A stretch of 64,000 bases of DNA, taken from the sequence record OP114734.1, one strand, 5' to 3'. Under the pieces are notes generated by a model that saw nothing but the letters and a program-made list of their open reading frames with translations, did no database searches and was not told the DNA's origin. Origin of the DNA: Escherichia phage vB_ESM-pEJ01. The translations under genes were made by a program, and so were the position numbers. Of the stretch, positions 1 through 55,708 are shown one piece after another (position 1 is the first letter of the stretch; each line of letters opens with the position of its first letter).

Positions 1-467
1 TGCACCATTTTAGGCATAGAGTTTTGCACAAATGCCGTAAAGCCATAAGCGCGACCATTGTAATAGTTTACGATTGTAAAGGTGTCAGTGTAGCTATAAG
101 CAGATTTCGCACCTAAACCAAAAGATCCGATATAATCATTAGTCTGGTCTTTGGTTGATTCAAAGTAAACCGTAAACAGTTGTTCTAATTCTTTCTTAGA
201 CGGAATACCAGTACCATAATCACGCACAGAAAAATACGGTTCGATTGCAGTCGGTAAATGAATATCAAACGGACGATCTAAGGTTCCTGCTTCTTTGTGA
301 GTGTCGGTAGCATTACATGAATACTCACGGACGCAAGCACGCTCACAATATTGATAAGTGTTCTTAGAAAGCACCATAAAAGCCTTGCTACTTGCTTTCA
401 GAGAAAAATCAACCGCACCGCTCAAGTCACTGCCAAATACTTCCTCATTATCGATATGCATTTTCAT
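1..467 (-). CDS. rIIA: rIIA protein, N-terminal fragment (gene continues past window start)
   Basis: Minus-strand translation from ATG at 465-467 (MKMHIDNEEVF...) matches remembered T4 rIIA N-terminus incl. GHKL-ATPase-like motifs VRDYGTGIP and GSFGLGAKSAYSYTDTF; SD GAGGA upstream. Confidence 0.8.
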   Translation of the reverse strand, partial: MKMHIDNEEVFGSDLSGAVDFSLKASSKAFMVLSKNTYQYCERACVREYSCNATDTHKEAGTLDRPFDIHLPTAIEPYFSVRDYGTGIPSKKELEQLFTVYFESTKDQTNDYIGSFGLGAKSAYSYTDTFTIVNYYNGRAYGFTAFVQNSMPKMV

Positions 468-481
468 AATATAATCCTCAC

Positions 482-739
482 TTAATTAAAATCTTCTTCG
501 TCCATCTCTGCGTAGATTACATCCCACGCCCATAAATCAATAAACGCATTATATGTCACGGTGCAATCGTTGTCAATCACTTCTTTCGCATATTTCTTGA
601 TGTTTTCGTAGGAAACTTGCGGATCAATTTTGTGTTTACGAAGGTGTGCATATTCATACCTCAAACATTTCATAAACAGGTTCATCGATTTCTTTTCTCG
701 ATGACACTTGGCGATCAGAAAATCAAAACTTCGACTCAT
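482..739 (-). CDS. hypothetical protein (85 aa)
   Basis: ORF track; AAGGAG SD 8 nt upstream of ATG at 739; no recognisable motif. Confidence 0.5.
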   Translation of the reverse strand: MSRSFDFLIAKCHREKKSMNLFMKCLRYEYAHLRKHKIDPQVSYENIKKYAKEVIDNDCTVTYNAFIDLWAWDVIYAEMDEEDFN

Positions 740-749
740 TTTCTACTCC

Positions 750-944
750 TTATACATTTTCAATCACCCATTGCAGATGGGCTTCTGCGTCAACCAGTTC
801 AGCGCGGCTTTTCTCTAAGCACTTGCTGTATTCTTTACGTTCCCAATCAGCAATTTCGTTTTTCAGGACTTCTTCATAGTAAGCAATTACGCCTTTCAGG
901 TCTGAAACTTTACGGCTTGCCAGTTCGATGTAATGGTTACGCAT
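750..944 (-). CDS. hypothetical protein (64 aa)
   Basis: ORF track; AAGGAGAATCAAAATG initiation region; no recognisable motif. Confidence 0.5.
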   Translation of the reverse strand: MRNHYIELASRKVSDLKGVIAYYEEVLKNEIADWERKEYSKCLEKSRAELVDAEAHLQWVIENV

Positions 945-1195
945 TTTGATTCTCCTTTGTTACTAGATAACGAATTTGGTCTTGCATTGCGATCAGTTCC
1001 CAGCGTGCTACTTTCATCATGGAAACCGACTCTTTGAACATAATATTAGCCTTTTCCTTATTCCCTGTCAAGTAGATTTCTGCAATTTTCACAAAATTTT
1101 TGAGTTTCTTCATTCTTAAACGGTTTCATATAAGTCAACCTTTTGTTTTCGATGGGGACATTATGATATATCCCCGATCCAATGTCAACAGATTT

Positions 1196-1495
1196 TTAAT
1201 CTTTTTTCAGTGCATCCATTACTCGCTCTGCGATCAGTTCTCGTAAGCACTGATAACCATGATATTTGATGGCAATGTCACGCAGATCATTAACCAGTTC
1301 CCGTACTTCATGGTCTTTCAGATCGTCTCTGTATTTCGATTTAACCGTGTCTTTAGGTGGATTGTGGATAACCTGAAAACCTTGTTCTGCAATCACTGCG
1401 GCTTCGCGCTGGCGTTCATGTTGTACTGTATTTTTGATCAGGTCTGCTTCCATGAACTTTGCCATACTCATCATCATGTTATTCTTTTTGCTCAT
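1196..1495 (-). CDS. hypothetical protein (about 99 aa)
   Basis: ORF track 1196..1531; start moved to internal ATG at 1495 (MSKKNN...) which has GAGGA SD, whereas the 1531 ATG lies inside promoter hairpin. Confidence 0.5.
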   Translation of the reverse strand: MSKKNNMMMSMAKFMEADLIKNTVQHERQREAAVIAEQGFQVIHNPPKDTVKSKYRDDLKDHEVRELVNDLRDIAIKYHGYQCLRELIAERVMDALKKD

Positions 1496-1518
1496 TATTA
1501 AATCCTCATAAAAGAAAA

Positions 1519-1557
1519 GGGAGACTCCCATTATAGAGAATCTCCCTTGTATGTCAA
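1519..1557 (-). promoter_or_regulatory. sigma70-type early promoter cassette (-35 TTGACA, inverted repeat gggaga/tctccc over -10 region)
   Basis: rc of tgtcaa at 1552-1557; inverted repeat 1519-1546; followed by SD and ATG of downstream gene. Confidence 0.4.
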
Positions 1558-2117
1558 CTAAAATTTAAAGATGCAAACTCCCCGTGATGAATTTTTGCAT
1601 ATTCATCATATGCTCTAGCGGCTTCCTCCTGAGTAGCAAACGATCCTATGTATTTTCTGTATCCGTTTATCCTTATTTGTGCTTGCCACGGTCTTTTGCT
1701 AGATCCTTTGCGATGAGTAACACCATTATATATGCTCGTGCACCCGTCCATTTTCTTTTTATTGTACATGTTTTGTTGTTGTGTTGCCTCCCGTAAATTT
1801 GGTGGATTGTTGTTTTCTGGATTCCCGTCTATGTGGTCTATTACCTTAACCTGTGTTCCATATTCAAGAAACCAGACAATTCTATGTACAAGATATGTAG
1901 ATGTTCTCTTTTTAACCTTATTGTAAACATCTATTGCCAAATGACCGTAATTTAACTTTTTTGTTTTTACTTTATCACCGACTCGGTAGAAATATCCCTC
2001 TGGTAGACCATTAAAAGACGGACTATTTGTTTTGTGATATAGAACACCTTCCGTGTGTTCAAATCTGCGTTTTAATTCCTCTTGAATTTCAGTATTCCAA
2101 AATTTCGCACTTTTCAT
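1554..2117 (-). CDS. HNH homing endonuclease with C-terminal AP2 DNA-binding domain
   Basis: HNH motif LVHRIVWFLEYGTQVKVIDHIDGNPENNNPPNLREATQQQN; AP2-like YNGVTHRKGSSKRPWQAQIRINGYRKYIGSFATQEEAARAYDEYA; start codon directly abuts stop of topoisomerase gene. Confidence 0.8.
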   Translation of the reverse strand: MKSAKFWNTEIQEELKRRFEHTEGVLYHKTNSPSFNGLPEGYFYRVGDKVKTKKLNYGHLAIDVYNKVKKRTSTYLVHRIVWFLEYGTQVKVIDHIDGNPENNNPPNLREATQQQNMYNKKKMDGCTSIYNGVTHRKGSSKRPWQAQIRINGYRKYIGSFATQEEAARAYDEYAKIHHGEFASLNFS

Positions 2118-2118
2118 A

Positions 2119-3942
2119 TTATGACGCCATCCATGCCTTCCTCATGTCTGAATCTTCGCTATAGAGCAAATCGAATAGCTCTTTATAGTTTTCCGGTAAC
2201 GTGATGATCTCCATGACAGGATCGTTGATCACGCGATGATAGTCTGATTCTGTGAGCGATGCTAAACCTTTGATATATCGAATGTTGTAACCTTTGATAT
2301 TATCTCGGTCGTTCTCGAAATCTTCTAGGTCATAATACCATCGAACATCATCACCTTTCTTTGGTTCAGCAATGATAATAGGTGTTTTGATAAACCGGAT
2401 TCGTCCATCTTCGAACAATTCAGGCCAACGTGCAAAGAAAGAGATCAGACTAGGTTTAATAGACCCGATCCCGTCGGTATCAGCGTCTGTCATAATCGCA
2501 ATATTTTTGTATTGCATAACTTCCAATGCATCAACACCAAATTGCAAGCCAGTGATCGCCATGATGTTAAAAATTTCGGCGTTATTAACGATCTTTGCCT
2601 CCGGTTGTTCCCACGTTGTAAGAGTTTTGCCTCGCAACGGGAAACCTCCATGTAAATCTTGATCGCGTACAGAGATCAGATAGTTGATCGCGGAATCACC
2701 TTCCGTCAAAAACAGGGTAGTTTCTGCGTCAGTTCCAATAAGGTTAGCTTTAACGTGTTTTGCCACCTTAGCCCGTTTCGCTGCCTTTGCTGCCTTAGTC
2801 GCTGCCGCTTTATCTGCTGCCTCTTTGCGTGCCAAGACTACAGCAATAATAGGCATGATAATGTTTTCTTTCTTCGCAATGACTTTAGCCAGCTTTTTAA
2901 AATCAAGATCAATATGACGCTTGATATCACCAGTCGGGTTAGTCAAGCGTTCTTTTGTCTGTGAATCAAAACGAAGGTTAGGCAATTCACGAACAATAAG
3001 AATACAGGTCAATCCAGATTTAACCGCAGCTTTAGTAACATCAACCTTATATTCTTTCTTGATTCGTTTTACAATCTCTTCACAAAGATCATCTGTCACA
3101 TAATCAACGTGTGTTCCCCCGTTTTTGGTAAACAGACCGTTAGCAAAGGATACTGATTTAAAACCTTCTCCCTCGACCGCCGGAACTAGGGCAAGTGAAA
3201 AGTTTTTATCTTCAATGACAAACGGATCATCATTGTATAGTTTAGCATAATCCTTGAACTTACTAACAATACGTTTACCATTAAACTTAAACGTGATCTT
3301 AGGAAATATTACGCTCAATGATTGCAGACGATCATGAACAATATCTAAAACAGAGTTGTCCATCATATAACCTTCGAAGTGGTCGAAGTCTGGACAAAAT
3401 GTAACCTTCGTTCCCTTCAATTTTGATGGTTTTGATGACCATGTGACATTTTCAGCACCGTTTGTGCATTGAACGGTCATTTCTGTTTCGCCGTCACAGG
3501 TCACACCAGTAAACCAATCGCTAAAGAAATTTGATAACGACGACCCAACACCGTTCATCCCTTGCGTTAATCGATTGGTATCATCAAAGTTAGACCCTGC
3601 TTTTGTTCGTGTCCATGCGGCTACAGGTTGCGGAATCTGCGTACCCTCTGGGGTAGTAACCATATGTTGAGGAATACCGCGACCATTGTCTGTTACCGTA
3701 ACAATATTGTTTTGGATATCGACGCTAATCACATTGGCAAATTCAAAGTTAGTGCGGATCGCCTCGTCTACAGAGTTGTCGATGATCTCATCAATGATTT
3801 TAACCAGTCCAGGAACGTATGAAATTTTTGTCCATTTACCGAACAGGAAACGTTGATGTTCTTCGTAAGTTGTTGATCCTATATACATTCCTGCACGCTT
3901 AAGGACATGTTCACGATCAGATAAAATGCGAAACTCACTCAT
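2119..3942 (-). CDS. 39: DNA topoisomerase II large subunit, uninterrupted (T4 gp39 plus gp60-equivalent in one 607-aa ORF)
   Basis: N-terminus MSEFRILSDREHVLKRAGMYIGS and GHKL ATPase motifs match T4 gp39; C-terminus NIAIMTDADTDGIGSI...RYIKGLASL matches T4 gp60. Confidence 0.9.
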   Translation of the reverse strand: MSEFRILSDREHVLKRAGMYIGSTTYEEHQRFLFGKWTKISYVPGLVKIIDEIIDNSVDEAIRTNFEFANVISVDIQNNIVTVTDNGRGIPQHMVTTPEGTQIPQPVAAWTRTKAGSNFDDTNRLTQGMNGVGSSLSNFFSDWFTGVTCDGETEMTVQCTNGAENVTWSSKPSKLKGTKVTFCPDFDHFEGYMMDNSVLDIVHDRLQSLSVIFPKITFKFNGKRIVSKFKDYAKLYNDDPFVIEDKNFSLALVPAVEGEGFKSVSFANGLFTKNGGTHVDYVTDDLCEEIVKRIKKEYKVDVTKAAVKSGLTCILIVRELPNLRFDSQTKERLTNPTGDIKRHIDLDFKKLAKVIAKKENIIMPIIAVVLARKEAADKAAATKAAKAAKRAKVAKHVKANLIGTDAETTLFLTEGDSAINYLISVRDQDLHGGFPLRGKTLTTWEQPEAKIVNNAEIFNIMAITGLQFGVDALEVMQYKNIAIMTDADTDGIGSIKPSLISFFARWPELFEDGRIRFIKTPIIIAEPKKGDDVRWYYDLEDFENDRDNIKGYNIRYIKGLASLTESDYHRVINDPVMEIITLPENYKELFDLLYSEDSDMRKAWMAS

Positions 3943-4041
3943 TATTAAACCTCTTCATAACATAACCATAACTTACTGCAACCGCCACAAAGACGGCTGC
4001 AACAATCATATTAAAAATTGAGTGATTGTCAAGTATATGAC

Positions 4042-4215
4042 TCATGACACGCGCACATTTTTATCATAGTACCCGCCATTAATCCCGCGCGGGGCAGTTA
4101 ATCCCTGTTTGCATTCTTTACCACATTCAGGGCATTCTGCCTTTTCACGCTCGGAAATTTTGCGGATTTTCTGAAATTGACCGTGTTCTTCACAAGAATA
4201 ATCATATAATGGCAT
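4042..4215 (-). CDS. small zinc-ribbon protein (FmdB-like CxxC...CxxC)
   Basis: MPLYDYSCEEHGQFQKIRKISEREKAECPECGK; start moved to ATG at 4215 with AAAGGGGA SD (track ORF 4042..4296). Confidence 0.5.
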   Translation of the reverse strand: MPLYDYSCEEHGQFQKIRKISEREKAECPECGKECKQGLTAPRGINGGYYDKNVRVS

Positions 4216-4216
4216 A

Positions 4217-4885
4217 TTATCCCCTTTGTTTCTTAACTGAATTTGGATCTGGATTTTCTGGTAGGTCTTCCAGACCCATAGCATAACGTTGTGCATAGAT
4301 TAGCATAAGAATATCGCGAGCGCAATCATGAATTGCATCATGTGCGATAAAACCATCTAGCGTACCCATTGGTAACGGGCATTCACACATACCACGATGC
4401 ATCAATGTACGCTCAATGGCGGTGCGAACATCTCGGATGTTCCAGAATCGCACAGGTTCAAGATTGAACGTCTCACGGGTATTGTGTGCACGGCGGATCA
4501 TATCAACCAGTAACGGAATATCAAACGCATTACCGCGTGACCACATTACGGATTTAACCGGATCTACTCCTACAGATTCACAGAATGCGTTAAAACGCGC
4601 TAAACCTTCTTTAGTTGATACTTCCGTACCATTTGTGATTAATTGCTTTCTCATGCCTTCTGAGGCGGTATTCTTCCACCATTCAACCACACCATGATCA
4701 AACACCCTTACACCTTTCTGGGAAGGAATATCAAATTTTACCAGAAAGGAATTGTCAACCAGTTCTTTAAATGTAGGTGGGTTGTGCGGATCTTCTTTAA
4801 ATCCGATTGCCGCCATATTGATCACCGCCCCATCAGGCGGATAACCTAAACTTTCAAAGTCAATCATTAAATCCACTGGAAGCAT
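4217..4885 (-). CDS. dexA: DexA-like 3'-5' exonuclease
   Basis: 222-aa ORF in the T4 dexA position between gene 39 and dda; sequence resembles remembered DexA but was not aligned. Confidence 0.65.
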   Translation of the reverse strand: MLPVDLMIDFESLGYPPDGAVINMAAIGFKEDPHNPPTFKELVDNSFLVKFDIPSQKGVRVFDHGVVEWWKNTASEGMRKQLITNGTEVSTKEGLARFNAFCESVGVDPVKSVMWSRGNAFDIPLLVDMIRRAHNTRETFNLEPVRFWNIRDVRTAIERTLMHRGMCECPLPMGTLDGFIAHDAIHDCARDILMLIYAQRYAMGLEDLPENPDPNSVKKQRG

Positions 4886-4886
4886 T

Positions 4887-5192
4887 TTAAATATCCTCCG
4901 CTATATGCCGGAACAACTCCAGATCGTTTTTATCTAGAATGAAACCGCTACAATCAATAATCCCTTTACCGTAATTATCAGTTAACAGTCGGTCCGTTGC
5001 CATGTATGCGCGTACTTTGTTGTTAAAATTAATTACATGTTGTGCATAATCACAATGAATCTTTTGACGGTTCCACGCGACAATTGATTGTAGATGTATT
5101 ACATTAGCCACATTATTAATAACAACCATATCAAAACCCTCGCTTAGTGGAATGTTCTGGCATTTTATTGATACATTCAGCTTGGTAGTCAC
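4887..5192 (-). CDS. hypothetical protein
   Basis: ORF track (GTG start at 5192); alternative ATG at 5129 with GAGGG SD would give about 80 aa. Confidence 0.45.
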   Translation of the reverse strand: MTTKLNVSIKCQNIPLSEGFDMVVINNVANVIHLQSIVAWNRQKIHCDYAQHVINFNNKVRAYMATDRLLTDNYGKGIIDCSGFILDKNDLELFRHIAEDI

Positions 5193-5196
5193 GAGA
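5126..5196 (-). repeat. direct repeat copy 1 (about 70 bp, roughly 80 percent identical to 5302-5372)
   Basis: accatatcaaaaccctcgcttagtggaatgttctggcattttattgatacattcagc... repeated with substitutions at 5302-5372. Confidence 0.6.
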
Positions 5197-5301
5197 TTTT
5201 TTTGACGAATTAAGAGCTACAGCCAAAAATCCTGTAACTGTTCGTTTGTCATTTTTGGCTTACACCGCGTATCTAAACCCTTCGTTCTTCTAGCTTCATT
5301 A

Positions 5302-5372
5302 GCCATATCAAAAACCTCTCTTAGTGAAATGCTCGATCATTTTATTGATACATGCAGCCTCACTATCGCCGG
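5302..5372 (-). repeat. direct repeat copy 2 (partial duplicate of gene start region at 5126-5196)
   Basis: gccatatcaaaaacctctcttagtgaaatgctcgatcattttattgatacatgcagc...; retains SD plus ATG but reading frame closes after 29 codons. Confidence 0.6.
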
Positions 5373-5475
5373 ACACGTTCCAGCCGTATAGACCCCATCT
5401 AAAGCACATGGTAACAGTTCCATTGTGACGGCTTACCGTCACATCATTAAATTCTGGGATACTTCGCATAATCAT
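5308..5475 (-). CDS. small hypothetical protein (55 aa), not in ORF track
   Basis: ATG at 5473-5475 preceded by GAGGAAATTATT SD; MIMRSIPEFNDVTVSRHNGTVTMCFRWGLYGWNVSGDSEAACINKMIEHFTKRGF. Confidence 0.3.
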   Translation of the reverse strand: MIMRSIPEFNDVTVSRHNGTVTMCFRWGLYGWNVSGDSEAACINKMIEHFTKRGF

Positions 5476-5485
5476 AATAATTTCC

Positions 5486-6877
5486 TCAAATATAGTCTAC
5501 TCGATACCTCGCACGGGTAACACCCACATATAATAACTGCATTGCCAATTCAAAGTCAACATTGTCTGTACACATGCAAGGAGTATACAGGAACACGCGG
5601 TCTACGCTGATCCCTTGTGACTTATGAATGGTGCAAGCTGGTAATGCTTTTACATTCAAGAACATACGCTTCATCGTCCAGAATGAATCCCAATCTGGTT
5701 TAAATTTTGGATTCTCTTTCTTCATTTCGCGATATTGTCCGGCGACCGTATTCAGATAGATAGAGAAAATGTTCTTCTGACGTTGTTCTGTCAGAATGTT
5801 GATTTCTACTAAATCTGGTTTATCTGTAGTGATTCCGACTGCATCTAAACCTACTTTCTGATTTAGGATTTCTTTGTCTTCGTCATCATCGACGCTTTCC
5901 ACTTTCAGAGTATATCCTAAAACTGGTTGCGGATCTACCCCCGTGCAACGTAATGTAAATTCACGCGGGATGACCTCTTTAACTCGGATCATCTCACCAT
6001 TGTTAAAAATAACATTGGGAATCTTCTTCCCGCGTTCATCTCGCAGATATTCGATCAATGGTTCCTGAGTAACCAGAATTTCATCTACAATCACTGGTTC
6101 ATCGGTGTTATAAACGCGCTTACGTACAATTTCATTGAGTTTTTCGACGCTCTTGTTAGTGTAGGCCAGAATACGGTTTTCTAGAAGGTCTTCCGGCGTT
6201 TTAACGGTTTCGAAATAATGCTTCATAAACTCCGGCAGAGTTGAGCTATGGAATACACCCTCGTTGCCGCACTGCTTTTCGAATACCCATTTACCATTAC
6301 GGACAGCGGTCGCCACATCAATTATTGGCGCATTAGATCGTTTAATCTCTGTAAGTTCTACATTCTGAAACCTTTCATCGGTGAAGAAAGGAGAGATCGA
6401 CGTTGCACCGCTCGGATCAACTGGTCGTAACTGGTACAGATCACCCACGGCAATAATAACAATTCGACCGTTGATACTCTTCATGAGAATATCAAATAGT
6501 TTCTTATCGACCATACTCGCTTCATCAACAATGATGATCTGAACATCATCTAGCTTAGGAGTATCTTTTTGCTCAAATACTTGAGTATCTTCATAGTTGG
6601 TCGGGTTTAGTCGCAGTAGTGCATGTAAAGTAAATGCTTGACGACCTACCGCTTTACTCAAAACTTTTTTAGCCTGGTGGGTAGGCGTTGCCAAAACCAC
6701 ACCAGTTACACCACGACGGACCATTTCCTGAACAATGAATTTCATCATTGCGGTTTTACCAGTACCCGCCGCACCACGGACAGTTGTATGCTTCTTTTGT
6801 TCAATGCGTTTCATTAGAACATCAAAAGCATGTTTTTGCCCGTCTGTTAACATATCGAAAGTTAATACTCTGCTCAT
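5486..6877 (-). CDS. dda: Dda DNA helicase (SF1)
   Basis: Walker A GAAGTGKT; FTEIKRSNAPIIDVATAVRNGKW and C-terminal LLYVGVTRARYRV match remembered T4 Dda; GAGGA SD. Confidence 0.92.
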   Translation of the reverse strand: MSRVLTFDMLTDGQKHAFDVLMKRIEQKKHTTVRGAAGTGKTAMMKFIVQEMVRRGVTGVVLATPTHQAKKVLSKAVGRQAFTLHALLRLNPTNYEDTQVFEQKDTPKLDDVQIIIVDEASMVDKKLFDILMKSINGRIVIIAVGDLYQLRPVDPSGATSISPFFTDERFQNVELTEIKRSNAPIIDVATAVRNGKWVFEKQCGNEGVFHSSTLPEFMKHYFETVKTPEDLLENRILAYTNKSVEKLNEIVRKRVYNTDEPVIVDEILVTQEPLIEYLRDERGKKIPNVIFNNGEMIRVKEVIPREFTLRCTGVDPQPVLGYTLKVESVDDDEDKEILNQKVGLDAVGITTDKPDLVEINILTEQRQKNIFSIYLNTVAGQYREMKKENPKFKPDWDSFWTMKRMFLNVKALPACTIHKSQGISVDRVFLYTPCMCTDNVDFELAMQLLYVGVTRARYRVDYI

Positions 6878-7191
6878 TATCCTAAAATCCTCACCTTGCG
6901 AACACAGATAGTATTGAGTTCTCGCCGTACCCGTTCTTTTTCATATTCAGGAATTTTATATTCGATACCATCCCGAACAATTTCAGAAGACCGGATTATG
7001 CCAAATTTTCGTTTAGGTACAACCTTGTATTTCGGTTCACCCGCCAATAGACTCTCACAATAATCTATCTGATCACACATTGACGCTAACGCAGCATCAT
7101 GTGTTTCGCAAGTTAGGACGCGACCTTTCGCGTCCACTGAGTATTGAAAGAATCCGTCTTTATCACGATAACATACAGCAAATACATGCAT
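6877..7191 (-). CDS. hypothetical protein (104 aa)
   Basis: ORF track; start overlaps stop of next gene; no recognisable motif. Confidence 0.5.
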   Translation of the reverse strand: MHVFAVCYRDKDGFFQYSVDAKGRVLTCETHDAALASMCDQIDYCESLLAGEPKYKVVPKRKFGIIRSSEIVRDGIEYKIPEYEKERVRRELNTICVRKVRILG

Positions 7192-7946
7192 TATAAACCT
7201 ACCTTCGCTTTCATCAATTCAATCCACGACGCATCAATCGGAAGCCCGTATTTCACGCGTTCTTTTTGTGCTGGCGTTAAGTTCTCATACTTAGAAAGAG
7301 ATTCAATCAAAACGCTGGTATATTTTAGCACGACTTCGGTATTGTTTGCAATAGCCTTAAGTTTTTCTTCTTTCTTGTTGATTTCGCTAAGGGCTTGCTT
7401 GAGATCTGCAATTTTCTGATAACGTTCTTCCATACGGAAGAGAGTATTTTTAATCGCTCGCTCGGCTGCCTCTGCTTTCTCCGGTTCGTTGTGCTTTTTG
7501 TGGCGCTCGATTGCTAACTTCTTTTCTTCGATTGCCATTTCCTGATTTTTGATGCGATTCTCGTTAAGTTCGATCCACTCGATGTACTTCGCACGTAGGG
7601 CAATTTCATCATCAGAAAGTTTACCGTTAGTTCCTAGTTCCTGGATCTCTTTAAGAGATTCGATAGTGTGATTGCCACGGAAAGAATTGTATTTCAGTTT
7701 AACCGGAATTACACTGCCATCAACATATCCTAGATTGCAATCAATGCGCTCTAAGGAGAGTCCATCATCACCTTCACCGAACGCTTCACCGGAATAGGCG
7801 CAATGAGTCTGACGGTAAATGTTGCGCACAGTGACTAAGCTCATAGAGAAGTCTTTGTTGCGACGTGAAGCGCCAGCCATGATAGAGTTCAGACGGAAAA
7901 CAACCAGCGCCAATTCTTCGTTAGATTTAAAAGCAAACAGTTTCAT
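7191..7946 (-). CDS. hypothetical protein with Lys/Glu-rich coiled-coil C-terminal half
   Basis: ORF track 251 aa; AGGAG SD; N-terminal segment HCAYSGEAF...ERIDCNLGYVDGSVIPV weakly HNH-like (uncertain). Confidence 0.5.
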   Translation of the reverse strand: MKLFAFKSNEELALVVFRLNSIMAGASRRNKDFSMSLVTVRNIYRQTHCAYSGEAFGEGDDGLSLERIDCNLGYVDGSVIPVKLKYNSFRGNHTIESLKEIQELGTNGKLSDDEIALRAKYIEWIELNENRIKNQEMAIEEKKLAIERHKKHNEPEKAEAAERAIKNTLFRMEERYQKIADLKQALSEINKKEEKLKAIANNTEVVLKYTSVLIESLSKYENLTPAQKERVKYGLPIDASWIELMKAKVGL

Positions 7947-7975
7947 AATTGATTCTCCTTAGTTGGCATGTGTGT

Positions 7976-8004
7976 ATTATTGTCTATCTGGTTTGTGCTG
8001 TCAA
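7976..8004 (-). promoter_or_regulatory. sigma70-type early promoter (-35 TTGACA at rc 7999-8004)
   Basis: rc of tgtcaa 7999-8004; A/T-rich -10 candidate 17-18 nt downstream; 25 nt before AGGAG SD of gene starting 7946. Confidence 0.35.
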
Positions 8005-8007
8005 CAC

Positions 8008-8511
8008 TTAAATTAAAGAAAATTTGTAAATCTCTATCAGATCGCCATTACACGCGTAAACTTCCTCGATCTCATCAAGGATCATGGTCGTCCCTGTCTT
8101 GTATATGCACTCGCGCTCATCTGCCAACATAGCATACAAAGACAGTCGAGTAGTCGGATTGTCATACTCTTTAGACACCACTCGGTCAATAGCATGTTCG
8201 TAATAATTCATGCAAGGCTTGGTAGGTTTTATTGCAATAATCTTTCCTGTTGCATAAACATCGGTTGCAAAGTCCTCTGCTGTTGATTGCAGTGGCGTAA
8301 AGCTCATAGGACGCTCTACAACGAAAGAATCGCCTACAATTAAGGTATCCAGCTTACGGCCTTCTCTTTTGCTCACACCGCGATACAAGGCTTCATGATG
8401 CACTAACCGCTCAGTCTTTTCAATCAATCCATTAAGGATCGACATATCGATATTTTCTTTAGAGTTCATCACCTCATCAATGATGTTAAGTTCTTCTGGT
8501 GTAAATTGCAT
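8008..8511 (-). CDS. putative mono-ADP-ribosyltransferase (ModA/ModB-like)
   Basis: 167 aa with candidate R-S-E triad: LYRGVS, LQSTAEDF, ADERECIY; syntenic with T4 modA/modB region; start codon uncertain. Confidence 0.4.
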   Translation of the reverse strand: MQFTPEELNIIDEVMNSKENIDMSILNGLIEKTERLVHHEALYRGVSKREGRKLDTLIVGDSFVVERPMSFTPLQSTAEDFATDVYATGKIIAIKPTKPCMNYYEHAIDRVVSKEYDNPTTRLSLYAMLADERECIYKTGTTMILDEIEEVYACNGDLIEIYKFSLI

Positions 8512-8520
8512 AATAAAAAA

Positions 8521-8544
8521 GCCTCCAATCTTTCGACGGGAGGC
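8521..8544 (-). terminator. rho-independent terminator hairpin (gcctcc/gggaggc) followed by U-run on minus transcript
   Basis: rc gives gcctcccgtcgaaagattggaggc then UUUUUUAUUA (8511-8520); lies just 5' of the 8511 start codon. Confidence 0.45.
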
Positions 8545-8574
8545 ATAATAAAACCATGATAGAGTAGTGTCAAC
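8545..8574 (-). promoter_or_regulatory. sigma70-type promoter (-35 TTGACA rc 8569-8574; -10 TATTAT rc 8545-8550)
   Basis: Predicted start falls inside terminator hairpin 8521-8544. Confidence 0.35.
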
Positions 8575-8580
8575 TAATTT

Positions 8581-9105
8581 TTAGTAGCCTCGTTCTTGAC
8601 GGGCGAAGTTTTCAGCATTTTTCAGATAGTACAGAATAAAGAGTTCTTGAGCGTCAATACCCAGCGGGATCATCTTTGACAGAATGAAGTGGATCGCGTC
8701 CACAAATTCAAATTTCACTTCAAGCTGATCTTCCGGTGACAGTTCAGAGAATTTACGCGCTCGCGCTTCTCCGTGGTTCTTTTTCCACATTTTCCAGATT
8801 GCACTTGCATCTTTACCATTGGACATTCCACCCAGCGATGTGTAAAGCTCTCGTGTTTCGTCTGCGATAGCGTCATCCATCCGCTGCATCCAATCCAGCA
8901 TTTCACCGCAAGTCTCTAGCTTAGTTGGATTTGGGACCCAATCAAATTTTTCGGATAATGCAACCTGCAAACCAGTTTGCATTTCGAGCATCACCTGAAA
9001 CGGATCTTTACCTTCTGCAATAGCGTGATGATATGCGGCGATAGCCGCGTTAATATCTTTTTCGTTAACCAGACCAGCACAAGAATTAAATTCTGACATA
9101 TTCAC
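8581..9105 (-). CDS. 56: dCTP pyrophosphatase (dCTPase-dUTPase) gp56
   Basis: DETRELYTSLGGMS, LSPEDQLEVKFE, LYYLKNAENFARQERGY match remembered T4 gp56. Confidence 0.9.
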   Translation of the reverse strand: MNMSEFNSCAGLVNEKDINAAIAAYHHAIAEGKDPFQVMLEMQTGLQVALSEKFDWVPNPTKLETCGEMLDWMQRMDDAIADETRELYTSLGGMSNGKDASAIWKMWKKNHGEARARKFSELSPEDQLEVKFEFVDAIHFILSKMIPLGIDAQELFILYYLKNAENFARQERGY

Positions 9106-9113
9106 CTCATTAA

Positions 9114-10142
9114 TTAAAATTTACAATATTTCATAAACCGCATTTTAGCCATCAGACCTTGTACGGTGTTCTCTTTGATATATTCCATGATCTGGTCGCG
9201 TGTAGCGCCCTCGTCCTGAATCATGGCGTTGACGTCTTTAGAATGCCACGGGCAACGATCCCACAATACAATCTTTTCCCCTGCATTGATAAACTTTTCC
9301 AGTCGGTGCATTGTATCGGCAGACCGTGGTTCCGCATCAAGTACAAACACTCGCTGATCAGGGAAAGGAATTTCATCTAATCCCAAAGTACCGCCAGTAA
9401 TTGCACACCCGTTATCAATAAACAATGAATCGATCGGACCTTCTAAGAAATACACTGGCCTACTCGGATCGGCGCGTTCAAGACCATAGACCTTACTCGC
9501 TAACTCATGAGTTTTAATCGTCATATATTTGGTCTTTCCGTAATCCTTTCTCAATGCTCGCCCCTGAATGGATTCTATCTTGTTCTCGCGGTTAAAGATA
9601 GGAATCACTAAACGCGGTTCAGGTTGTGGATTCTTGAAAGTATCAGCCTTAATGTGATTTGCTACCTTTTGCCATTCTCTCGTGAAATACAGAAGATCCC
9701 ATTTATCGTGGGGAATGCAACGATCACTGACATACTTTATTATAGGATGATTAGCCGGAAGAGTATCTAACCTCTCGCAGAAAGGCAATGTTTGCACTTT
9801 CTTAATCTCCGGCTTTTCTACCTTTTTCAGTGGCTTGAACGTGGTGTTCTTGTGGTCGCCTTGTTCCTTCCGTCGTTCCATAAGCCATTCCCTGAATAGG
9901 TCCGGCTTATATTGTTTAAGAAATTCACCTAACGGCTGATTATAGTTACAGTTGAAGCAACCACAACGCAAACTATCTTTATAGGTATAGATACGGAATC
10001 GCGCTTGAGTATGATTTTTCTTTGAGTCACCGCAGATCGGACAACTACACACCAGCGTAAATGAGCTAGTATGCAACCGTTTAAAATTTCGTTCGCCGTA
10101 TATGGCTTTTTCCGCTATTTCATAATCTGCGTAGTAAATCAT
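9114..10142 (-). CDS. 61: DNA primase gp61
   Basis: 342 aa (same length as T4 gp61); N-terminal zinc-binding cysteines CSCPICGD...CGCFNC; position next to gene 56. Confidence 0.85.
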   Translation of the reverse strand: MIYYADYEIAEKAIYGERNFKRLHTSSFTLVCSCPICGDSKKNHTQARFRIYTYKDSLRCGCFNCNYNQPLGEFLKQYKPDLFREWLMERRKEQGDHKNTTFKPLKKVEKPEIKKVQTLPFCERLDTLPANHPIIKYVSDRCIPHDKWDLLYFTREWQKVANHIKADTFKNPQPEPRLVIPIFNRENKIESIQGRALRKDYGKTKYMTIKTHELASKVYGLERADPSRPVYFLEGPIDSLFIDNGCAITGGTLGLDEIPFPDQRVFVLDAEPRSADTMHRLEKFINAGEKIVLWDRCPWHSKDVNAMIQDEGATRDQIMEYIKENTVQGLMAKMRFMKYCKF

Positions 10143-39240: not shown

Positions 39241-39996
39241 TTATACCTCATTCAGTTCTATATCAAGTTCATTTTCAATAATATAGGCATTAACTGCCCG
39301 TGCCGCATCATCTTCTGTGTCAAATCTTCCTATATACACACCGCGAACTTTAGCACCGTAATTACCTTGTTTTGGTACTTTGTAAACGTATCTATGACGG
39401 GAACTTGCTGCTTTTTGGAGCTTCTTGCCATATTCAGACTTTGCATATTCTATATCATCAATCTCGTTTATACAAGACCTATCACCAAAATGTTTCAACG
39501 CTGCAAGATTATATGCATAAGCCGCACCGATCTCGGAGGGAAAATATCCTAAATGTATAGACTTCCCATCCAACATTATTGCACCAGTCCAATAACCTTT
39601 ATTCTTATTAAACGACACACCTTTATACTTCGAATATGTTTTGCATTTGGTCTTGCTCATATTCATATTATTTTGTTTGCTTGTCGTCTCTCTAAGGTTT
39701 TCAATGCGGCTATTATAACGATCTCGGTCTTTATGATCTATATACTTAGGACAATGACCATGAAACATATGATAGATAACACGGTGCATACGTTCGTATC
39801 GCTCGCCAGTCCATACAATACGATACCCATCGGGGGTATCACTTCCAGCTAATCCGTTTATAACACCTTTTCGGTGCGGGTGAATCTTCCACCTAAGAAA
39901 ACCATCATCATAATAAAACCGTGAATGATATAAATCATACAAACGTTTATCTTCTGGAGTCTTGTGTATAACCTCATATTTTAACATTGGTGACAT
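39241..39996 (-). CDS. HNH homing endonuclease with two AP2-type DNA-binding domains
   Basis: HNH HRVIYHMFHGHCPKYIDHKDRDRYNSRIENLRETTSKQN; AP2-like YKGVSFNKNKGYWTGAIM...AAYAYN and YGAKVRGVYIGRFDTEDDAARAVN. Confidence 0.8.
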   Translation of the reverse strand: MSPMLKYEVIHKTPEDKRLYDLYHSRFYYDDGFLRWKIHPHRKGVINGLAGSDTPDGYRIVWTGERYERMHRVIYHMFHGHCPKYIDHKDRDRYNSRIENLRETTSKQNNMNMSKTKCKTYSKYKGVSFNKNKGYWTGAIMLDGKSIHLGYFPSEIGAAYAYNLAALKHFGDRSCINEIDDIEYAKSEYGKKLQKAASSRHRYVYKVPKQGNYGAKVRGVYIGRFDTEDDAARAVNAYIIENELDIELNEV

Positions 39997-40789
39997 AAAC
40001 TTCCTTAGTATCGGATTTTTTACCCCCGCTACGGTCTAAACAATATGTTTTATCCAGTTCAACAACAGAAATATCATTACGTTCGATAAAATCAAGCAAA
40101 TGGTTGTTAACTTTCCCTTTGTGGTGAGTAACATTGCTTAATCCAAACTTAGTACCGCTAGACATTAATGATTCTATCCACATGTAGAATTTAATCTCTT
40201 CTTCTTCACTCCAGAACTTATTATATTCTGCCGACGTGATCCAATATGGCGGATCAAGGAAAACGAAATCACCTGGCAAGATCTCGATCTCATCATAACG
40301 ACCAGACGTAAAACTGATTCGACCGTCTTTGTTTTCTTCCTTAAAATTCAGGACACGCTCTACCGCGTTTTCGTTAAAAGTCCGTCGGCCAAAATTAGCA
40401 TTAAATTCGCCCTTCCGGTTGTGGCGGTTAATGTTGCTAAAACTATGCTGAATCAACACAAACAGCGATAACGGATCTGGATTCTCGTTATACTTCTTAC
40501 GGAATGTCATGTAAGCGTCTTTATCTTCGCGAGACAAACCATTTTCGGCAATAATACGCTTGATCGTAGAAACCGGATCAGGACACTCGTCAATCGCTTT
40601 GTACGCGTCAATTAAGCGGTGATCATAGTCATTAGCCAGCACATCCCCTTCGACGTACAGAGACACGCTCAAGCCGCCACAGAAGGCATCAACAAAGCGG
40701 TTATAGTGCTTAGGGAAATACTTACTAACACTTGGCAATAACTTTTCCTTATTCCCAGTATAGGGAATTAAACCTAATGCTTTCTTCAT
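39974..40789 (-). CDS. dam: DNA adenine methyltransferase (Dam)
   Basis: FVDAFCGGLSVSL (SAM binding) and FVFLDPPYWIT (DPPY catalytic motif); resembles remembered T4 Dam. Confidence 0.88.
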   Translation of the reverse strand: MKKALGLIPYTGNKEKLLPSVSKYFPKHYNRFVDAFCGGLSVSLYVEGDVLANDYDHRLIDAYKAIDECPDPVSTIKRIIAENGLSREDKDAYMTFRKKYNENPDPLSLFVLIQHSFSNINRHNRKGEFNANFGRRTFNENAVERVLNFKEENKDGRISFTSGRYDEIEILPGDFVFLDPPYWITSAEYNKFWSEEEEIKFYMWIESLMSSGTKFGLSNVTHHKGKVNNHLLDFIERNDISVVELDKTYCLDRSGGKKSDTKEVYVTNVKI

Positions 40790-55133: not shown

Positions 55134-55708
55134 TTATTTTGGATCTGGGAAATTCAATAGAGCATATTCTCCATAAAATTTCCTAGCTGCATTATCATAA
55201 GCGATTGCAGCTTCGATTTCTGTGTCATATTGTCCAAGAACATGTCTTTGTAGGTTGACCATTATACTAGCTCTCCATTTCTTACGCAAATCCTTCCTGT
55301 TACACTTACTAACACCCTTATACACACTAGAAAACTTTTAGACTTCTTCTTTCTATTATGTTGATTTTGCGCGTCGGTTGCCTCCATAAGATTTGGAGGA
55401 TTGTTATTAGCAGGATTACCGTCAATATGATCAATTAATCTAACTTGCGTCCCATGTTCTAGAAACCAAACAACCCTATGCACGAATAGATGAACTCTAG
55501 GAAGACCGTCATCTCTACTATGCCAAAATCTAAGATGACCATCTTTATTTGTTCTGACTTTAACTAAATCGCCGTGTTTATATCTACTCCCTAATGGTCG
55601 TCCTTTGATAGCTTTACTATCGACTCTATAATATAAGATACCCTCTATATGAGCATATCTAAGTTTTATCTCGTTTTGTAGGGATTCATCCCAATATTTA
55701 AAAGCCAT
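55134..55708 (-). pseudogene. HNH-AP2 homing endonuclease split by a frameshift at an A-run (or sequencing error)
   Basis: 55262..55708 carries HNH (LFVHRVVWFLEHGTQVRLIDHIDGNPANNNPPNL); AP2 domain (YKGVSKCNRKD...AAIAYDNAARKFYGEYA) continues in -1 frame as ORF 55134..55325; shift near aaaag at about 55318-55326. Confidence 0.55.

Follow-up and report, generated by a model that had tools for sequence, protein, structure and literature searches.

A probable homing endonuclease gene of the HNH-AP2 class abutting the stop codon of topoisomerase gene 39 in Krischvirus phages

We analyzed a 64,000-nt stretch of the genome of Escherichia phage vB_ESM-pEJ01 (record OP114734.1; the window), which is a Krischvirus (RB49/JSE-like) genome. 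The 187-aa open reading frame found directly after topoisomerase gene 39 is, with a probability that we put at roughly 0.8, a promoterless, translationally coupled and free-standing homing endonuclease gene of the HNH_3-AP2 kind, which spreads by intronless homing and, in some RB49-like phages, has entered the three bases that separate the stop codon of gene 39 from the promoter/terminator that follows. As a mobile element the insert is neat but unexceptional, its kind being known already, and current understanding is not overturned by it. The features on which the analysis is built are, in window positions:

1517-1557, minus strand: conserved, perfect sigma-70 promoter (TTGACA-16-TATAAT, 1557-1530), with which a terminator hairpin (1548-1517) overlaps; limits the insert on the right and is the predicted end of the gene 39-HNH transcript
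1554-2117, minus strand: free-standing homing endonuclease gene (HNH gene), 187 aa, I-HmuI-like HNH plus C-terminal AP2 (Pfam, PHROG and PDB sequence matches, fold matches)
1558-2118, minus strand: 561-nt insert relative to RB49-type genomes, in place of 'CAC' (filled/empty site alignments)
1593-1730, minus strand: AP2 DNA-binding domain, aa 130-175 (Pfam, PDB sequence matches, fold match)
1764-1895, minus strand: HNH_3 catalytic core, aa 75-118, DH...N...NLR...N (Pfam 6e-14, above the gathering score; I-HmuI alignment; family residues)
2119-3942, minus strand: gene 39 (60+39), uninterrupted topoisomerase II large subunit, 607 aa (ORF list, Pfam, T4 gp39/gp60 alignment, RB49/JSE/Phi1 annotations)
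2122-2151, minus strand: recoded last ten codons of gene 39 (SDMRKAWMAS), 30 nt, the 'C tail'; linked to the insert, proposed to confer immunity and to contribute to translation initiation of the HNH gene
2515-2520, minus strand: equivalent of the T4 39/60 split, the MobA element insertion site, intact here (BLASTP boundaries: T4 gp39 aa 475 = window aa 474; T4 gp60 aa 31 = window aa 476)
4005-4032, minus strand: promoter-like site (11/12) upstream of gene 39, the nearest likely origin of an HNH-carrying transcript

Gene 39, the insert and the encoded protein

As the initial annotation had proposed, a single ORF spans both parts into which the topoisomerase gene of T4 is divided. Its product aligns end to end with T4 gp39 plus gp60, with 57% identity between window aa 2-474 and gp39 aa 4-475, and 53% identity between window aa 476-606 and gp60 aa 31-159 (BLASTP), and it contains the HATPase_c, DNA_gyraseB, Toprim and TOPRIM_C domains (Pfam). 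Moreover, the counterpart in RB49 is annotated as 'corresponds to gp60 and gp39 in T4', and that in Phi1 as '60+39'. Among T4-related phages, the undivided gene represents the parental state, and outside T4-type phages it is the usual one; its continuity is thus unremarkable and calls for no special explanation.

The two reading frames lie on the minus strand where they had originally been placed, with the HNH gene starting 1 nt past the gene 39 stop codon: TAA (2121-2119) is followed by T (2118) and ATG (2117-2115). Comparison with genomes lacking the HNH gene defines the insert to the base, as filled sites read TAA-T-ATG...TTTTAG-TTGACA and empty sites TAA-CAC-TTGACA. The insert fills precisely the interval from the stop codon of gene 39 (Topo2L nt 1824) to the promoter/terminator, and the TGA stop of the HNH gene overlaps the TTGACA -35 box. 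This border element, annotated as promoter/terminator in GEC-3S and G5211, is near-identical in filled and empty genomes, with single-base differences only in LF73P4 and 011D4. The insert has a GC content of 36.2%, versus 41.1% in gene 39. Neither direct nor inverted repeats flank it and no target-site duplication was seen; a transposon or IS element was rejected on these grounds, together with the lack of a transposase domain (Pfam).

Regarding the protein, both domains of the HNH_3-AP2 pair were recognized, and the catalytic motif and the predicted fold are intact. A PHROG 99 match was obtained at 5e-49, and PDB sequence matches included 1U3E, 7WQ5 and 1GCC. The residues D94, H95, N107, R109 and N119, invariant across 20 relatives, are all present. 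The Pfam match to AP2 is weak (1e-5, 25.7 bits, under the gathering score of 33.3), and the domain is further supported by phmmer matches to plant AP2/ERF structures, with E-values of 9e-6 to 3e-4. The AF2 model (pLDDT 94.6) retrieved 1U3E and 1GCC in Foldseek searches, and superposes on 1GCC with an rmsd of 1.6 A over 61 columns.

Distribution of the insert and the recoded gene 39 tail

The HNH gene was found in 8 of 58 Krischvirus records, corresponding to seven phages (JSE, W115, kvi, LF73P4, G37-3, G5211 and FL15), and carriers and non-carriers occur in pairs from the same sample sets (kvi/kaaroe, G37-3/G2494 and FL15/FL20). The site is thus polymorphic for presence or absence at one position between conserved genes, with junctions that are sharply defined. 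Nucleotide diversity is about five times lower in the insert (0.0043) than in both of its flanks (0.018-0.025). All eight copies are intact and differ at only seven variable sites (four synonymous, three non-synonymous), which are too few to assess selection on the protein. In addition, the nearest neighbors of HNH-carrying genomes in both flanks are often genomes without the gene, and the divergence of the flanks between the two classes equals that inside each class. Since T4-like phages recombine heavily, such mosaic flanks are by themselves no proof of endonuclease-driven spread. Altogether, the sequence comparisons suggest that the insert is young and foreign, and that it has spread horizontally.

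We then focused our attention on the end of gene 39, where carriers and non-carriers show 11 fixed differences within 21 nt (2125-2145); the only other fixed differences in the compared gene 39 and flanks are the insertion-junction columns 2118 and 2116. The resulting C tail is identical in the 8 carrier genomes and 44% divergent from the tails of HNH-less genomes. Its changes include the synonymous switches CGC to AGG, AAA to AAG and GAT to GAC, and the conserved D-RK-WM residues are retained. The left border is sharp, as polymorphism common to both classes is found already at 2158. A query made as a synthetic precise deletion detected no C tail without the HNH gene among the 58 Krischvirus records, and the exact 30-mer, used to look for a donor, gave no matches in IMG/VR. 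The conserved 23-mer upstream of the tail matched two IMG/VR and two metagenome contigs, all of them HNH-less, which uncovered tail haplotype D (read only from metagenome contigs). HNH-less genomes therefore carry at least three different tails (A, B and D), and since these vary among themselves, tail variability there is not specific to the element. Tail A is that of RB49, tail B that of Whisky and PTE-Eco09, and Makalu is a candidate carrier of tail D. As a lead only, we note that the GC-rich CAGCGC / CCGCCGC of susceptible-type tails corresponds to CATGAGG in the carrier tail, a candidate AP2 target.

From these comparisons, the C tail probably provides self-immunity together with part of the ribosome-binding site of the HNH gene. 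Nevertheless, being too close to the HNH gene for recombination to separate the two, the tail need not be the immunity determinant. It could be a passive leftover of the divergent gene 39 of a donor, brought in by the first (illegitimate or homeologous) insertion and linked to the element only by a proximity of 1-30 nt, in which case protection would come solely from the split stop-codon/promoter junction. We give this alternative an appreciable chance, although one well below even. The contiguity of the tail with the insert and its sharp left border agree with it, as do the mosaic tails of HNH-less genomes, which imply that this short stretch tolerates replacement; also, polymorphisms in the homologous region that the MobA element encodes were not sufficient by themselves to block nicking. 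On the other hand, a passive origin does not readily account for a stretch altered at 11 of 21 nt, three synonymous codon switches among them, in which the conserved residues were nonetheless kept, nor for the fact that the same changes raise complementarity to the anti-SD sequence. Moreover, no donor was found, either in IMG/VR or in the HNH-less phages among the 58 records.

The preferred reading, in which the tail has a function, can be taken further. The mobile unit may be a cassette with its own replacement gene 39 C-terminus, whose ten recoded codons would keep the topoisomerase functional, destroy the recognition site and thus confer immunity, and supply ribosome-binding signals to the endonuclease; we advance this tentatively, at a little short of even odds. 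If true, the at least four tail haplotypes seen in otherwise 97-99% identical genomes would be the traces of a continuing arms race between recognition of the target and escape from it, and the first target for a phage AP2 domain would have been mapped. Furthermore, with the Endo VII-like gene that lies at the 5' end of gene 39 in 13 of the 58 records, gene 39 would be a hot spot at which unrelated endonuclease families use three sites, the 5' end (Endo VII-like), the interior (MobA, in T4-type phages) and the 3' end (HNH-AP2).

Putative expression and homing of the HNH gene

The initial annotation held that there is no room for a strong Shine-Dalgarno (SD) sequence of the HNH gene's own, which is roughly what we found, as any such sequence must fall within the coding tail of gene 39. 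The best pairing within 20 nt of the HNH start is GGAUGG at a distance of 9 nt (-5.5 kcal/mol), and neighboring genes have stronger pairings, of -6 to -9.5 kcal/mol. Anti-SD pairing ahead of the HNH start is stronger with the recoded tail than with the A and B tails (-5.5/-8.5 versus -3.1 kcal/mol). No promoter site scoring at least 10/12 was found between the site at 4005-4032 and the HNH start, no late promoter (TATAAATA) occurs in the region, and a terminator lies directly 3' of the gene. The MFE fold showed no convincing hairpin sequestering the HNH start codon, and the search for known RNA families at the junction returned only a chance-level miRNA match. These features are in line with what is known of T4 free-standing endonuclease genes, which are typically promoterless and overlap or abut their neighbors (PMC2988022). 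Lacking a promoter, the HNH gene would form the final cistron of the transcript that carries gene 39, and its translation would proceed at a low level by termination-reinitiation at UAA-U-AUG, possibly aided by the SD-like sequences in the recoded tail (GGAUGG/GAGGAAGG).

By analogy with I-HmuI, MobA and MobE, we propose that in mixed infections the enzyme would bind HNH-less genomes through its AP2 and N-terminal domains and nick or cut them close to the 3' end of gene 39 or at that end itself. The damage would then be repaired by recombination from a carrier genome, bringing in the HNH gene together with the adjoining ten recoded codons. The carrier may be protected from its own enzyme by the recoded tail, by the insert splitting the stop-codon/promoter junction, or by both.

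An alternative is that the HNH-AP2 protein is not primarily a mobile element, but an accessory nuclease kept for the benefit of the phage, cutting competing phage or host DNA, or else an AP2-based DNA-binding regulator. HNH and AP2 domains do occur in non-selfish proteins, all eight copies have remained intact, and T-even free-standing endonucleases can reportedly exclude the markers of related phages and aid escape from defence (PMC13096335). However, most Krischvirus members do without the gene, and its placement, promoterless state and link to a recoded tail of the target gene fit selfish homing; moreover, excluding competitors by cutting HNH-less relatives does not differ biochemically from homing, so that this proposal overlaps with the homing explanation rather than replacing it. 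As a substitute for homing, we consider it very unlikely. It is also very unlikely that the HNH gene was ancestral to Krischvirus and lost from most lineages by deletion and spread of the empty allele: such genes are known to decay and disappear, a second HNH-AP2 copy within the window is frameshifted and the empty allele is in the majority (50 of 58 records), but the filled allele appears to be the younger one, given a roughly fivefold lower diversity in the insert than in its flanks and three tail haplotypes at empty sites, the composition of the insert is foreign, the same TAA-CAC-TTGACA junction in nine aligned HNH-less genomes and one IMG/VR contig (with A or B tail) would call for precise excision, and no HNH gene remnant was seen in any empty site examined.

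Overall, homing remains the reading that we favor for the HNH gene. In practical terms, the insert explains a small indel separating otherwise near-identical coliphages that are therapeutic candidates. With filled and empty alleles both available in cultured phages (e.g., JSE and RB49), it also offers a compact natural system for studying target choice by HNH-AP2 enzymes, the sufficiency of a ten-codon tail for immunity and the translation of an endonuclease gene abutting a stop codon. Along with the Endo VII-like insert that other isolates have at the opposite end of gene 39, it contributes to the view that replication genes are targeted repeatedly by unrelated selfish nucleases.

Comparison with known systems

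The T4 MobA element is likewise an HNH-family endonuclease gene tied to the topoisomerase II large subunit gene; it is also promoterless, abuts or overlaps the upstream ORF, and exchanges a small part of the host gene for a homologous but divergent copy (the MobA 'homR', 67-81% identity; here, the ten-codon tail). It inserts at Topo2L aa 466-473 (bioRxiv 10.1101/2022.08.31.505936), that is, at window codon ~475, some 400 nt upstream of the HNH insert. In contrast to the element described here, which follows the stop codon and does not interrupt the gene, MobA inserts in the Toprim domain and divides the gene, to which it adds C- and N-terminal extensions, and translational bypassing (a 50-nt cassette) is required. 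The elements also differ in size (561 nt versus ~1100 nt for MobA). A MobA-type insertion, with split gene, CTE/NTE and bypass cassette, can be discarded for the window, as gene 39 is continuous at codon ~475 and the insert lies past the stop. The protein is not of the MobA type either, since it has 187 aa, instead of 269-279 aa, and belongs to the HNH_3/AP2 class; a relation to MobA was rejected, the best E-value being 0.7 when the HNH protein was compared by tblastn with T4 positions 1-10000 (39-mobA-60 region). The initial annotation had suggested a different insertion site or stage of invasion of the same gene neighborhood: invasion of the topoisomerase neighborhood by a homing endonuclease at a non-T4 site stands, while any link to 39-mobA-60, or a 'stage' of it, does not. 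It had also named, as what would refute its reading, an HNH gene unrelated in position to any target site in the topoisomerase gene; that holds for the MobA target, yet the co-travelling recoded tail points to a target in the 3' end of the topoisomerase gene.

The HNH-AP2 free-standing genes of T4-related phages are reportedly the class of Magnani et al. 2004. Those of RB49 (RB49ORF040c) and RB43/RB16 combine HNH_3 and AP2 in the same host phage group, as does the protein studied here, and two more copies lie in the window (39241-39996 and 55134-55708); the gene 39 HNH protein has only 34-46% identity to these other copies, and its location at the gene 39 stop codon is not shared with them. 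The closest relatives (46-51% identity) are found at other intergenic sites of T4-like genomes, in the gp2/gp53 neighborhood, between rpbA and gene 45, and after the endolysin gene. As these are not beside Topo2L, an endonuclease lineage specialized on topoisomerase genes in other genera was rejected. The class has been recorded before, with one copy in RB49 and two in JSE (PMC1524935; PMC2993671 Table 5). In the literature searched, we found such class-level counts only and no published account of the gene 39 stop-codon insertion, no HNH-AP2 member with a mapped target or demonstrated homing, and no cleavage or homing data for the 187-aa protein or for any HNH-AP2 enzyme of T4-like phages.

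I-HmuI of SPO1 (PDB 1U3E) is the best solved-structure match for the N-terminal two-thirds of the protein, the catalytic stretches being VVDHKDGNKDNNLSTNLRWVTQKIN versus VIDHIDGNPENNNPPNLREATQQQN, with an overall identity of ~25% over 103 columns. Unlike the protein encoded here, I-HmuI is an intron-encoded nicking enzyme with C-terminal NUMOD/helix-turn-helix modules instead of AP2. Regarding intronless homing by T4 MobE, SegF and SegG, the nuclease and DNA-binding architecture differs, and both homing and target are putative in our case. Nevertheless, as in those systems, a free-standing gene located between conserved genes appears to use upstream transcription and translational coupling, and the features that we propose here by analogy, a target in the neighboring conserved gene and co-conversion of flanking DNA, are those of MobE, SegF and SegG (PMC2988022).

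Gene 39 and the adjoining HNH-AP2 gene

The initial annotation had described a single gene 39, encoding the large subunit of topoisomerase II (Topo2L) and spanning both parts of the split T4 gene, with an HNH-AP2 endonuclease gene starting 1 nt after its stop codon. Both statements were borne out by the ORF list and the raw sequence. The features of the region are:

2119-3942, minus strand: gene 39, an ORF of 607 aa
2121-2119 (TAA), 2118 (T) and 2117-2115 (ATG), minus strand: gene 39/HNH junction
1554-2117, minus strand: HNH gene, an ORF of 187 aa
1517-1557, minus strand: promoter within a terminator hairpin; sigma-70 consensus 12/12, the hairpin ending the gene 39/HNH transcript

The 607-aa ORF contains the Pfam domains HATPase_c, DNA_gyraseB, Toprim and TOPRIM_C, and both T4 proteins align to it, gp39 (aa 4-475) with aa 2-474 at 57% identity and gp60 (aa 31-159) with aa 476-606 at 53% identity. 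An uninterrupted gene 39 is expected and already known, since the unsplit Topo2L gene is regarded as the parental state, the MobA element of ~1.1 kb inserting at Topo2L aa 466-473 (Manning and Atkins, bioRxiv 10.1101/2022.08.31.505936), and since the RB49 gene is annotated as 'corresponds to gp60 and gp39 in T4 which are disrupted by an insertion' and that of Phi1 as '60+39'. A 36-codon hydrophobic mini-ORF of the RB49p006.1 type (3935-4045, minus strand), annotated in some relatives only, overlaps the gene 39 start and includes the promoter-like site at 4032-4005.

The 187-aa ORF carries an HNH_3 domain (6e-14) and an AP2 domain; the latter falls below the Pfam gathering score, but both its fold and its sequence similarity to plant AP2/ERF structures confirm the assignment. 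Its catalytic stretch VIDHIDGNPENNNPPNLREATQQQN aligns with the I-HmuI counterpart, and D94, H95, N107, R109 and N119 are invariant across 20 relatives. In the AlphaFold model (mean pLDDT 94.6), the N-terminal part matches I-HmuI (1U3E) and the C-terminal part AP2/ERF domains (1GCC, 1.6 A over 61 columns). No similarity of the protein to T4 MobA was found. Relatives were detected by tblastn in 1193 phage records, those above 60% identity in eight Krischvirus records only; the next-closest in a large protein collection are 46-51% identical and occupy other intergenic sites of T4-like genomes, namely the gp2/gp53 neighbourhood, between rpbA and gene 45, and after the endolysin.

Two further HNH-AP2 genes were observed in the window. 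The paralogue at 55134-55708 (minus strand, 46% identical) lies 3' of the M15 endolysin and is probably decaying, as a 1-nt deletion in an A-run separates its HNH portion (148 aa) from its AP2 portion (63 aa) and a family-invariant arginine is altered (NLR>NLM); intact versions exist (P0003/L025), and this insert is limited to 13 of 58 Krischvirus records. The gene at 39241-39996 (minus strand, 251 aa), whose C-terminus bears a second AP2-like repeat, overlaps by 23 nt the 3' end of a Dam-type methyltransferase gene (39974-40789) and is itself followed by a glutaredoxin-like ORF; it probably corresponds to the RB49ORF040c-type copy recorded in 2006 (PMC1524935).

Insertion site, expression and diversity of the insert

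A megablast search with 1000-4500 retrieved 58 phage records, all Krischvirus (RB49, Phi1, JSE, GEC-3S and relatives; 94-99% identity). Eight of them, corresponding to seven phages (JSE, W115, kvi, LF73P4, G37-3, G5211 and FL15), carry the HNH gene, which the other 50 lack; carriers and non-carriers were obtained side by side within single studies (kvi/kaaroe, G37-3/G2494 and FL15/FL20). When filled sites are aligned with empty ones, a 561-nt insert (2118-1558) takes the place of 'CAC', bordered by the gene 39 stop codon and, on the other side, by a perfect TTGACA-16-TATAAT promoter; no flanking direct or inverted repeats were found. The HNH TGA stop shares bases with the -35 hexamer, and the promoter overlaps a 13-bp terminator hairpin, so that one 41-nt element would both stop and restart transcription. 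This element is near-identical in 17/17 genomes compared, with single-base differences in LF73P4 and 011D4 only.

Upstream of the HNH start, as far as the gene 39 promoter (4032-4005), neither a promoter-like site of at least 10/12 nor the late promoter TATAAATA was found. As a terminator also lies directly 3' of it, the HNH gene would most likely be carried as the final cistron of the gene 39 message, with ribosomes reinitiating past the UAA to translate it. Exactly the same pattern is seen in T4, where most free-standing endonucleases are promoterless cassettes with poor or absent ribosome-binding sites that overlap or abut the upstream ORF (Edgell, Gibb and Belfort, PMC2988022).

In a 3.5 kb alignment of eight filled genomes (window included) and nine empty ones, the 11 fixed differences between the classes all fell within 2125-2145, in addition to the junction bases, while divergence between the classes was 0.022-0.026 in both flanks, about equal to the within-class values. 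Diversity of the insert was 0.0043 (7 variable sites) as compared to 0.018-0.025 in the flanks, its GC content was 36.2% against 41.1% for gene 39, and the closest flank neighbours of carriers were often non-carriers. Combined, these sequence comparisons indicate a young, foreign segment transferred onto several backbones.

The recoded end of gene 39

All carriers have the same final ten codons in gene 39, and these are 44% divergent from those of non-carriers. Non-carriers mostly end in ...GAT GCA GAT CAG CGC AAA ATT TGG ATG CAA TCA TAA (ADQRKIWMQS), and carriers in ...GAT TCA GAC ATG AGG AAG GCA TGG ATG GCG TCA TAA (SDMRKAWMAS), with synonymous switches in three codons (GAT>GAC, CGC>AGG and AAA>AAG) and the D-RK-WM residues conserved (the T4 gp60 C-terminus is DLRKEWMSQ). 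Among the 58 records, no carrier tail was found without the endonuclease gene. At least two more non-carrier tails occur, SDRRKIWMQS and SDRRKEWMCS, the latter with 3-5 extra intergenic bases before the promoter, giving at least four haplotypes at 2122-2151 and its equivalents (L012, L013, L026, L028 and L029). Genomes with differing tails are otherwise 97-99% identical and the tails are mosaic on a ~10-nt scale; by this comparison, the stretch is unusually variable within the genus.

In the carrier tail, two stretches are predicted to pair with the 16S anti-SD ahead of the HNH start, one at 9 nt (-5.5 kcal/mol) and one at about 18 nt (-8.5 kcal/mol); pairing is weaker for the common non-carrier tail (-3.1 kcal/mol). 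The linked tail resembles the 'homR' encoded by the MobA element (bioRxiv 10.1101/2022.08.31.505936). At somewhat below even odds, the recoded tail may confer both immunity and translation signals. Immunity we only infer, since polymorphisms by themselves did not block nicking in the MobA system. That the tail is only a hitch-hiking remnant of the donor is a possibility to which we give somewhat less credence.

At the other end of gene 39, G5211 (L003) has an Endo VII-like gene directly upstream (its 3952-4680; window equivalent between 3943 and 4041), encoding 242 aa with a C-terminal Endonuclease_7 domain (Pfam) and unrelated to the HNH gene. It is polymorphic, being found in 13 of the 58 records and lacking in the window; thus, both ends of gene 39 are endonuclease insertion sites in Krischvirus. 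Over the first ~700 nt of gene 39 (3250-3942), G5211 and G37-3 (L008) are ~25% divergent from the window/RB49 allele, as against ~1% over the remainder; G37-3 has this block without the upstream gene. The block may represent either a large co-conversion tract or the footprint of a hit-and-run event.

Probable homing and its alternatives

We consider it probable (about 0.8) that the HNH gene encodes a free-standing HNH-AP2 homing endonuclease, which would spread by intronless homing and whose target would sit at or near the gene 39 3' end. A role as a beneficial accessory nuclease overlaps with homing and does not replace it. It is unlikely that the gene was ancestral and later lost, because the insert is low in diversity and foreign in composition and loss would require precise excision, the common empty junction (non-carrier tail types A and B) being the same TAA-CAC-TTGACA in those genomes that were read nucleotide by nucleotide.

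HNH-AP2 genes as a class have been on record since 2006, when they were reported for RB49 and RB43 (PMC1524935); in 2010, two copies were counted in JSE (PMC2993671). The ORF is already labelled as HNH or homing endonuclease in several GenBank records. In the literature searched, no publication was found on insertion at the gene 39 stop codon, on the recoded tail linked to it or on a target. The main value of the insert is that it offers a clean, testable natural system. The suggestion of a different insertion site or stage of endonuclease invasion in this gene neighbourhood holds insofar as the same gene appears to have been invaded independently, and not as a variant or stage of 39-mobA-60, as the T4 MobA element and the HNH-AP2 insert differ in protein family, in site and in consequence for the host gene.
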